A stretch of 64,000 nucleotides of DNA, from NCBI GenBank assembly GCA_018812595.1, contig JAHJDF010000012.1:276-64275 (forward strand), read 5' to 3'. The DNA is from Gammaproteobacteria bacterium (lineage in GTDB: Bacteria > Pseudomonadota > Gammaproteobacteria > UBA12402). The translations under genes and the position numbers were made by a program. The notes beneath the pieces are model-generated. The model was not told the origin of the DNA. It searched no databases and was given only the letters and a program-made list of their open reading frames with translations. Below, one piece after another: positions 60,455 to 60,658 of this stretch; positions within the stretch are counted from its first letter, which is position 1, and each line of letters begins with the position of its first letter.

Positions 60455-60658
60455 ATGAAAAAGCAAAAATATGAAACGGCGATCGTCATCCCTGGCGCCG
60501 CCAACATCACACAAGGGCCTGGATGTAGTAATGCTCGGGAAGATTATCAATCCAACTGCACGCACTACCAAGTAGGGCTATGCAGAGAACCTGATAAGGA
60601 AAAAGAGCCTGAAACACCTGAGGAATTAGATATCCCTAGAAGAAGGCTTGGCTTCTAA
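60455..60658 (+). CDS. Candidate lasso-peptide precursor (67 aa): leader MKKQKYETAIVIPGAANITQ, core GPGCSNAREDY...
   Basis: Strong RBS. Thr sits at the penultimate leader position before Gly1, and there is Glu at core position 9 (Asp at 10), matching the T(-2)/G1/acidic-residue(7-9) rule for lasso macrolactam formation. Lies 0.77 kb upstream of the B gene. The long 47-aa core is atypical. Confidence 0.4.
   Translation: MKKQKYETAIVIPGAANITQGPGCSNAREDYQSNCTHYQVGLCREPDKEKEPETPEELDIPRRRLGF

Follow-up and report, generated by a model that had tools for sequence, protein, structure and literature searches.

The 67-codon open reading frame (ORF) at 60455..60658 (+) of the window, by which the whole analysed stretch of 64,000 nucleotides is meant, is probably the precursor gene of a lasso peptide cluster, its predicted product having a ring closed between Gly1 and Glu9 of the core; the probability of this reading, which is built on sequence comparisons, can be put at roughly 0.78. 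The order of the cluster is A (the precursor gene) – icmD paralogue – B – C, all on the plus strand, with about 770 nt between A and B; the 5' neighbours of A, located on the opposite strand, are mraY-murD-ftsW-murG-murC-murB-ftsQ-ftsA. The predicted B2 protease, leader-binding domain, cyclase, and Thr(-2)/Gly1/Glu9 precursor together make up the set of features by which a lasso cluster is recognised. If the peptide is matured at its full length, the size range of lasso peptides would extend from 33 to 47 residues, and a natural cyclase would thread a ring over a 38-residue segment, a property useful for lasso-fusion engineering. The features of the locus are as follows.

60395..60422, plus strand: possible promoter, with a perfect -35 TTGACA (60395-60400), a 16-nt spacer, and a TAATTT -10 (60417-60422)
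60443-60448, plus strand: ribosome-binding site AAGGAG, 6 nt 5' of the ATG
60455..60514, plus strand: predicted leader peptide of 20 aa, MKKQKYETAIVIPGAANITQ, with the recognition motif I-x-G-A-A-x-x-T-x and Thr at position -2
60515..60655, plus strand: predicted core peptide of 47 aa, with Gly1 at 60515-60517 and Glu9, the predicted ring acceptor, at 60539-60541
60668..60703, plus strand: stem-loop right after the precursor stop codon, -15.9 kcal/mol, z = -2.7, without a T-run
60766..61149, plus strand: icmD (dotP) paralogue, annotated by NCBI as type IV secretion protein IcmD; its product is a small membrane protein of 127 aa that carries a signal peptide
61178..61300, no strand assigned: palindromic repeat copies between the icmD paralogue and B
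61428..62183, plus strand: lasso B protein of 251 aa, in which a leader-binding (RRE) domain at the N-terminus is joined to a Cys protease of the transglutaminase-like type, with C187, H219, and D231
62180..>64000, plus strand: lasso C cyclase, Asn-synthetase-like, its start overlapping the end of B by 4 nt (ATGA); the gene continues beyond the window and encodes 632 aa when the full contig is read
62795..62902, plus strand: 36-codon in-frame insertion in C, derived from the palindromic repeat element, situated in the linker before the PP-loop and absent from six homologues

The probable precursor ORF and its relatives

The ORF is translated as MKKQKYETAIVIPGAANITQGPGCSNAREDYQSNCTHYQVGLCREPDKEKEPETPEELDIPRRRLGF and ends with a stop codon at 60656-60658. 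The predicted cut, T19-Q20|G21, and the Glu at core position 9 agree with the residues that mark lasso precursors, i.e., a penultimate Thr in the leader, Gly (or Ala/Ser/Cys) at core position 1, and Asp or Glu at core position 7, 8, or 9. The core also contains Cys4, Cys15, Cys23, and Asp10, and has 10 acidic and 7 basic residues. A sequence-only reading of the same DNA had already described a lasso precursor with Thr(-2), Gly1, and Glu9 followed by B and C, and this description is supported, with the enzymes encoded on the same strand and an SGGLDS loop present in C; the strong ribosome-binding site that it attributed to the 67-aa ORF is likewise confirmed. The promoter, there called plausible, is weaker than that word implies: it was not called by the consensus scan, its best -10, TAATTT, matches only 3/6 positions, and its assignment must be regarded as weak. 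The stem-loop at 60668..60703 was not scored as a terminator, and it is possible that it serves as an attenuator or an mRNA stabiliser. Nothing in Pfam or NCBIfam matched the precursor ORF, and nothing in Rfam matched anywhere in the 64-kb window. No nucleotide differences were found in the precursor ORF among the available assemblies, and this invariance leaves no room for a dN/dS test. Located 5' of the promoter region, at 60186-60257 and 60292-60323, are four copies of an 18-bp unit, CTACGCGGGAATGACGGA, and two copies of a 16-bp unit; in assembly L001 the interval from mraY to the ORF is shorter by 18 nt, that is, by one 18-bp unit, than in the window and in assembly L002.

When the whole precursor ORF was used as a query, a word-indexed search of 5.8 billion clustered proteins returned nothing but an identical protein of the same MAG species, and an exhaustive phmmer search of 1.84 billion representative proteins returned only the ORF itself. 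Relatives were found through their genetic setting: among the loci fetched, comprising the contigs of 23 B homologues and 41 loci from genome and metagenome scans, the small ORFs adjoining the related B/C pairs form a clear family sharing the leader end and the ring region. Examples of the relatives, with the predicted cut marked, are …INGAAARTK|GNYMDHPKEKYY (core also given as GNYMDHPKEKYYWIYPKP), …INDAAAKTQ|GNYSDRNKERYYYIYPNPERLPMSKSN, …IIIKGASKNTQ|GQGGRKVEYAFEVHPRG…, whose core starts GQGGRKVEY, …IIIKGAAKNIR|GASFIRKNENSRYGW…, and …VKKAAGYTR|GSSGRYRESYTEPHYCTHTT, whose core starts GSSGRYRESY and whose locus has the B nearest to that of the window (44 %). The window ORF, …AIVIPGAANITQ|GPGCSNAREDY, has the same frame as these relatives, namely I-x-G-A-A-x-x-T-x, Gly1, and Glu-x-Tyr. 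The conservation of the small ORF beside homologous B/C genes, with which the sequence-only reading was to stand or fall, is therefore found for the leader end and the ring region but not for the tail, REPDKEKEPETPEELDIPRRRLGF, which has no relative in either the 5.8-billion or the 1.84-billion protein search, so that selection on the tail cannot be demonstrated.

This uncharacterised precursor family, known from metagenomes and MAGs (L006-L012, L015-L017, L039-L044, and L059), has its leader and ring features in common with the window ORF. Its leaders of about 20-26 aa start with MK… and end with [VI]-x-I-x-[GND]-A-A-x-x-T-x, similarly to the window leader, and its cores, encoded on the same strand as B/C, have, like the window core, Gly1 and a Glu at position 8 or 9 followed by x-Tyr. 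The family cores contain an aromatic segment of the YYYIYP type, whereas the window core differs from them in its post-ring sequence, its three Cys residues, and its acidic tail; unlike the window locus, the family loci lack an IcmD-like gene, with the exception of L014. The hosts are mostly Alphaproteobacteria MAGs, including Odyssella, Holosporales, and Megaera, and the family is also present in Methylococcaceae, Chlorobiaceae, and Phycisphaerales MAGs. The window cluster itself belongs to an uncultured gammaproteobacterium with a Dot/Icm system, and B homologues occur in the intracellular Odyssella, Holosporales, and Megaera; what lasso peptides do in lineages of this kind has hardly been explored. 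Among amoeba symbionts, Amoebophilus was reported earlier to have lasso clusters (PMC3423634).

Other arrangements of precursor genes were also seen among the loci collected. Loci L019, L020, L021, L023, L024, and L031, from Alphaproteobacteria MAGs and Candidatus Odyssella, carry 2-5 tandem precursor genes whose leaders end with …AS-x-LTQ and whose cores of 16-25 aa have Gly1 and Glu8; several of these cores contain one ring and one tail Cys, like class III lasso peptides. Locus L013 (306..6076) contains two tandem B-C pairs with a 55-aa ORF between them (…ENASKIIK|GSGEHRIES…), in which Ile and not Thr occupies position -2.

The relationship of the window ORF to the family was also recovered by profile searches. 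Profiles were built without the window ORF and run against a database of 14,383 six-frame segments drawn from the complete window and from the loci available at that stage; with 14 or 15 relatives' ORFs in the profile, the window ORF scored 19.7 bits (E = 4.3e-4) or 17.3 bits (E = 2.4e-3) and was the top match after the family members among all 14,383 segments, the aligned region starting at the leader's N-terminus, passing G1, and extending as far as E9-x-Y11. A narrow profile of the 5-11 closest precursors gave the window ORF an E-value of only 7 to 0.29, so the significance depends on the addition of divergent precursors, and the E-values, which vary with the alignment, should be read as modest.

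With a weight matrix of the leader covering positions -10 to +1, the ITQ|G site ranked first among 54,828 window positions, with 18-19.7 bits versus 8.5-9.2 bits for the runner-up. The codons for IVIPG(A) at 60482-60499 are similar to the left end of a palindromic repeat element found in this genome, and the corresponding 13-mer pattern, CGTCATYCCNRGC, has five matches in the window versus 0.02 expected, four of the five being repeat copies. The leader may in part descend from the repeat, or the match may be due to chance, and some of the likeness of the leader to those of the relatives could accordingly have another source. With the matrix cut to positions -6 to +1, which leave out the leader stretch resembling the repeat, ITQ|G still ranked first among 62,448 positions, if narrowly (12.8 vs 12.3 bits). 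Another matrix, built on 'alpha-type' leaders (…ASxLTQ|G), does not single out the window ORF; its top match is internal to a 326-aa ORF and was taken as chance.

The core of the palindromic repeat is GTCATYCC…GCGGGRATCCAG, and its intergenic copies are located at 7879-7961, 24405-24490, 33268-33307, 60067-60160, and 61178-61300. The region 59930-60455 and the stretch 3' of the precursor ORF are rich in repeats, which, together with the lack of any homologue of the entire ORF, would suit the notion that the ORF arose by chance in a repeat-filled intergenic region and that the true precursor lies elsewhere. Against this, by the profile and the weight matrix no site in the 64 kb is more like a precursor, the ORF lies on the right strand, it has a ribosome-binding site, an MKK start as in the relatives, and a leader whose length is typical of the family, and the cluster has no other candidate: no other precursor-like ORF is found between mraY and the contig end, including the approximately 370 bp after C, where a better precursor downstream of the cyclase had been envisaged and none turned up. 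Small ORFs between the icmD paralogue and B (61152..61370 and others) were considered as precursors and rejected, as they are translations of the repeat element devoid of precursor features. A chance origin of the ORF is therefore disfavoured and regarded as highly improbable. Some features of the ORF are nevertheless adverse to calling it a precursor, namely its distance of 770 nt from B with a gene in between, the odd number of Cys residues, and a core longer than the leader; rules of the RODEO type penalise all three.

The predicted lasso peptide

By analogy with characterised systems, the N-terminal domain of B would bind the leader through the I-x-G-A-A-x-x-T-x motif, and the Cys-His-Asp protease domain of B would cleave after Gln20, two residues past the Thr; C would then adenylate the side chain of Glu9 and join it to the amine of Gly1, producing a 9-residue ring around the segment that follows. 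Cleavage, ring closure, threading, the final length, and export are all inferred in this scheme. The predicted product has 38 residues after the ring, including the 24-residue acidic, Pro-rich tail REPDKEKEPETPEELDIPRRRLGF. The bulky residues Tyr11, His17, and Tyr18 are candidate plugs. At most one disulfide could form, with one Cys left free; since a ring Cys is combined with a tail Cys in several relatives, a ring-to-tail disulfide of the class III type, joining Cys4 with Cys15 or Cys23, is plausible. The calculated monoisotopic mass of the core less one H2O, as predicted for the ring-closed form, is 5400.51 Da, or 5398.49 Da with one disulfide.

The sequence-only reading had left the choice of ring acceptor between Glu9 and Asp10. 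The conserved Glu of the relatives aligns with Glu9 of the window ORF and not with Asp10, and of the 37 relatives that were gathered first, 27 have the acceptor at position 8, eight at position 9, and two at position 7. The 9-membered ring is supported by this alignment, and the 10-membered ring through Asp10 was rejected; we know of no precedent for a lasso ring of ten members.

That reading had also described the core as unusually long, rich in charge, and containing three Cys residues, and the comparison bears it out: with 47 aa the window core is the longest, the cores of about 45 collected relatives having 16-41 aa. Cores of 41 residues are encoded in L006 (7664..7858), L042 (6314..6532), and L043 (6635..6853), where the C-terminal extensions, …PAPPKPNKGN-x-YGIMNNLKSLIR…, are kept between loci; this conservation indicates that long segments after the ring are a recurrent trait of this enzyme family.

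The McjABCD system of microcin J25 has a fused B, an Asn-synthetase-like C, a leader with Thr at -2, and a product in which Gly1 is joined to a Glu side chain. The window system is similar in its fused B with Cys-His-Asp, its Asn-synthetase-like C, and its Thr(-2); whereas microcin J25 has a Gly1-Glu8 ring, 21 residues, and the McjD ABC exporter, which also confers immunity, the window cluster has a predicted Gly1-Glu9 ring, a predicted core of 47 aa, an icmD paralogue, and no exporter seen. The longest characterised lasso peptide is pandonodin, a proteobacterial product of 33 aa whose tail of 18 aa is also the longest characterised, and the enzymes of astexin-1 and pandonodin tolerate C-terminal extensions or fusions (June 2026 review, PMC13352647). 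In comparison, the window core has 47 aa, with 38 post-ring residues as predicted from the sequence, and no sequence similarity to pandonodin. Class III lasso peptides such as BI-32169 have one ring-to-tail disulfide (PMC13352647); BI-32169 has two Cys, but the window core has three, Cys4 in the predicted ring and Cys15 and Cys23 after it. The window peptide would thus differ from every characterised lasso peptide in its predicted core length, and the cluster differs from its relatives in the tail, the icmD paralogue, and, possibly, the absence of an ABC pump.

The B and C enzymes and the state of the cluster

The B protein matches NF033537 (lasso_biosyn_B2) at 1.9e-22 (80 bits, with a cut-off of 33) and PF13471 at 1.5e-19; a PDB sequence search with B gave no match. 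Its N-terminal domain has a fold like that of the TbiB1/TfuB1 leader binders and qualifies as an RRE (PqqD-like) domain. In 23 homologues, C187 and H219 never vary and D231 hardly does, and the 32/12 spacing of these three residues is that of the McjB triad. The B proteins encoded beside the related precursors are 37-44 % identical to the window B. One of the B relatives, P0025, matches the C-terminal half only.

The C protein has the domains PF00733 (9.5e-13) and GATase_7 (4.3e-6), and in comparison with six homologues it keeps the PP-loop DFSGGLDSS and every family-invariant residue. Against the NCBIfam lasso-cyclase models it reaches 73.6 bits, far below the cut-off of 525, which points to a divergent subfamily; a PDB sequence search with C gave only a weak amidotransferase match. 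Its identity to the relatives is 38-48 %, the closest C, at 48 %, being that of L014. The in-frame insertion in C resembles the insertions of the Rickettsia palindromic element. Both enzymes are intact and translationally coupled.

Of the related loci fetched, 40 have an ABC exporter adjoining B/C, the same contig being counted more than once in some cases. At the window locus none was seen over 10 kb upstream, nor in the 300-540 bp that follow C before every contig of the locus ends in repeats. This absence can be viewed as a sign of decay, in which case the cluster would be eroding in a host-associated genome invaded by repeats, the ORF would derive from a lasso precursor, the tail would be a functionless by-product of stop-codon loss or rearrangement, and the product would be absent or trimmed. 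The tail without relatives would fit such a history, as would the repeats that flank the ORF, lie between the icmD paralogue and B, and interrupt C, the repeat-like 13-mer in the leader, and the window B, which forms a long branch, its identity to any other B not exceeding 44 %. Yet B and C keep all family-invariant residues, the insertion in C is in frame and confined to the interdomain linker, the coupling of B to C is kept, and the ORF has a good ribosome-binding site, an ATG start, and a frame open for 67 codons; as to the exporter, its absence is not decidable with every contig ending 300-540 bp after C. A decaying cluster is judged unlikely.

The icmD paralogue and a possible route of peptide export

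The icmD paralogue, for which Pfam gave no match, is 68 % identical to the icmD located between icmC and icmJ on another contig of the same MAG, in a Dot/Icm operon of the order icmL-K-E-G-C-D-J-B, and it pairs with this operon icmD in a neighbour-joining tree. In L014, from another gammaproteobacterial MAG, an IcmD-like gene with 45 % identity is located directly 3' of C; the contig starts inside B, and its precursor is therefore missing. The coordinates of the IcmD-like genes are 60766..61149 in the window, 2444..2848 in L014, and 7001..7387 in L035. No ABC exporter was seen in L014, whose contig begins inside B, and no IcmD-like gene is present in any ABC-containing locus. The pattern of icmD presence and ABC absence is only suggestive, since the window contigs end 300-540 bp after C and that of L014 begins inside B. 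The function of IcmD is not established in the literature (PMC6761968), and no paper in the literature searched links lasso peptides with IcmD. The duplicate of icmD in two lasso clusters without a visible ABC pump constitutes a testable lead both on peptide export and on the role of IcmD/DotP.

An extension of the lasso precursor explanation, and not a replacement for it, is that the peptide, lasso or linear, would be exported by the type IVB system, with the acidic tail as a signal and the icmD paralogue as a link or a means of self-protection. Consistent with this are the Dot/Icm operon and the icmD duplicate in the same MAG, the IcmD-like gene next to the closest C in L014, the fact that IcmD-like genes and ABC exporters were not seen together in the loci described above, and the composition of the tail, in which 8 of the 18 residues at positions -8 to -25 are acidic, ExE and EE motifs are present, and Leu occupies position -3. 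Of 58 long ORFs from this organism, none has more than 7 acidic residues at -8..-25, and the commonest count is 2. The E Block, described as 3-6 or more acidic residues within a stretch of 6-10, located about 8-25 residues from the end, and a hydrophobic residue close to the C-terminus (Huang et al. 2011, PMC3096851), is recognisable in the tail as a compositional feature only.

However, an acidic, Pro-rich tail of low complexity is not a specific trait. The definition of the E Block stems from full-size Legionella effectors and not from peptides; the Dot/Icm substrates that carry E Blocks are proteins, whereas the window candidate would be a modified peptide of 5 kDa, for which composition alone is a weak argument. 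The export proposal is further weakened by the unsettled function of IcmD, by its dependence on two loci that are both cut by contig ends, by the long-tailed L006 and L042, which have non-acidic tails and an ABC exporter, and by the lack, in the literature searched, of any paper connecting lasso peptides with IcmD. Export by the type IVB system is thus considered improbable, and slimmer still is the chance that the E-Block-like tail is a translocation signal and the icmD duplicate a coupling or self-protection factor, the two replacing the ABC exporter. Were it true, this would be the first ribosomal, post-translationally knotted peptide delivered by type IV secretion, possibly into a eukaryotic host cell.

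Several other features of the window are worth mentioning. A 326-aa ORF at 49186..50166 (+) is without a Pfam domain and has an acidic C-terminus, …TIEEIKTDEDIPSEEGPYHVLEN, with 7 acidic residues at -8..-25; it can be considered a candidate Dot/Icm substrate. A 119-bp unit is present in three copies, with 92 % identity, at 22506-22862. Eukaryotic-type kinase domains are encoded by two ORFs, 1626..3032 (-) and 45499..46962 (-) (Pkinase at 1.3e-12; Kdo/Pkinase/RIO), which fits a host-associated, effector-rich organism.
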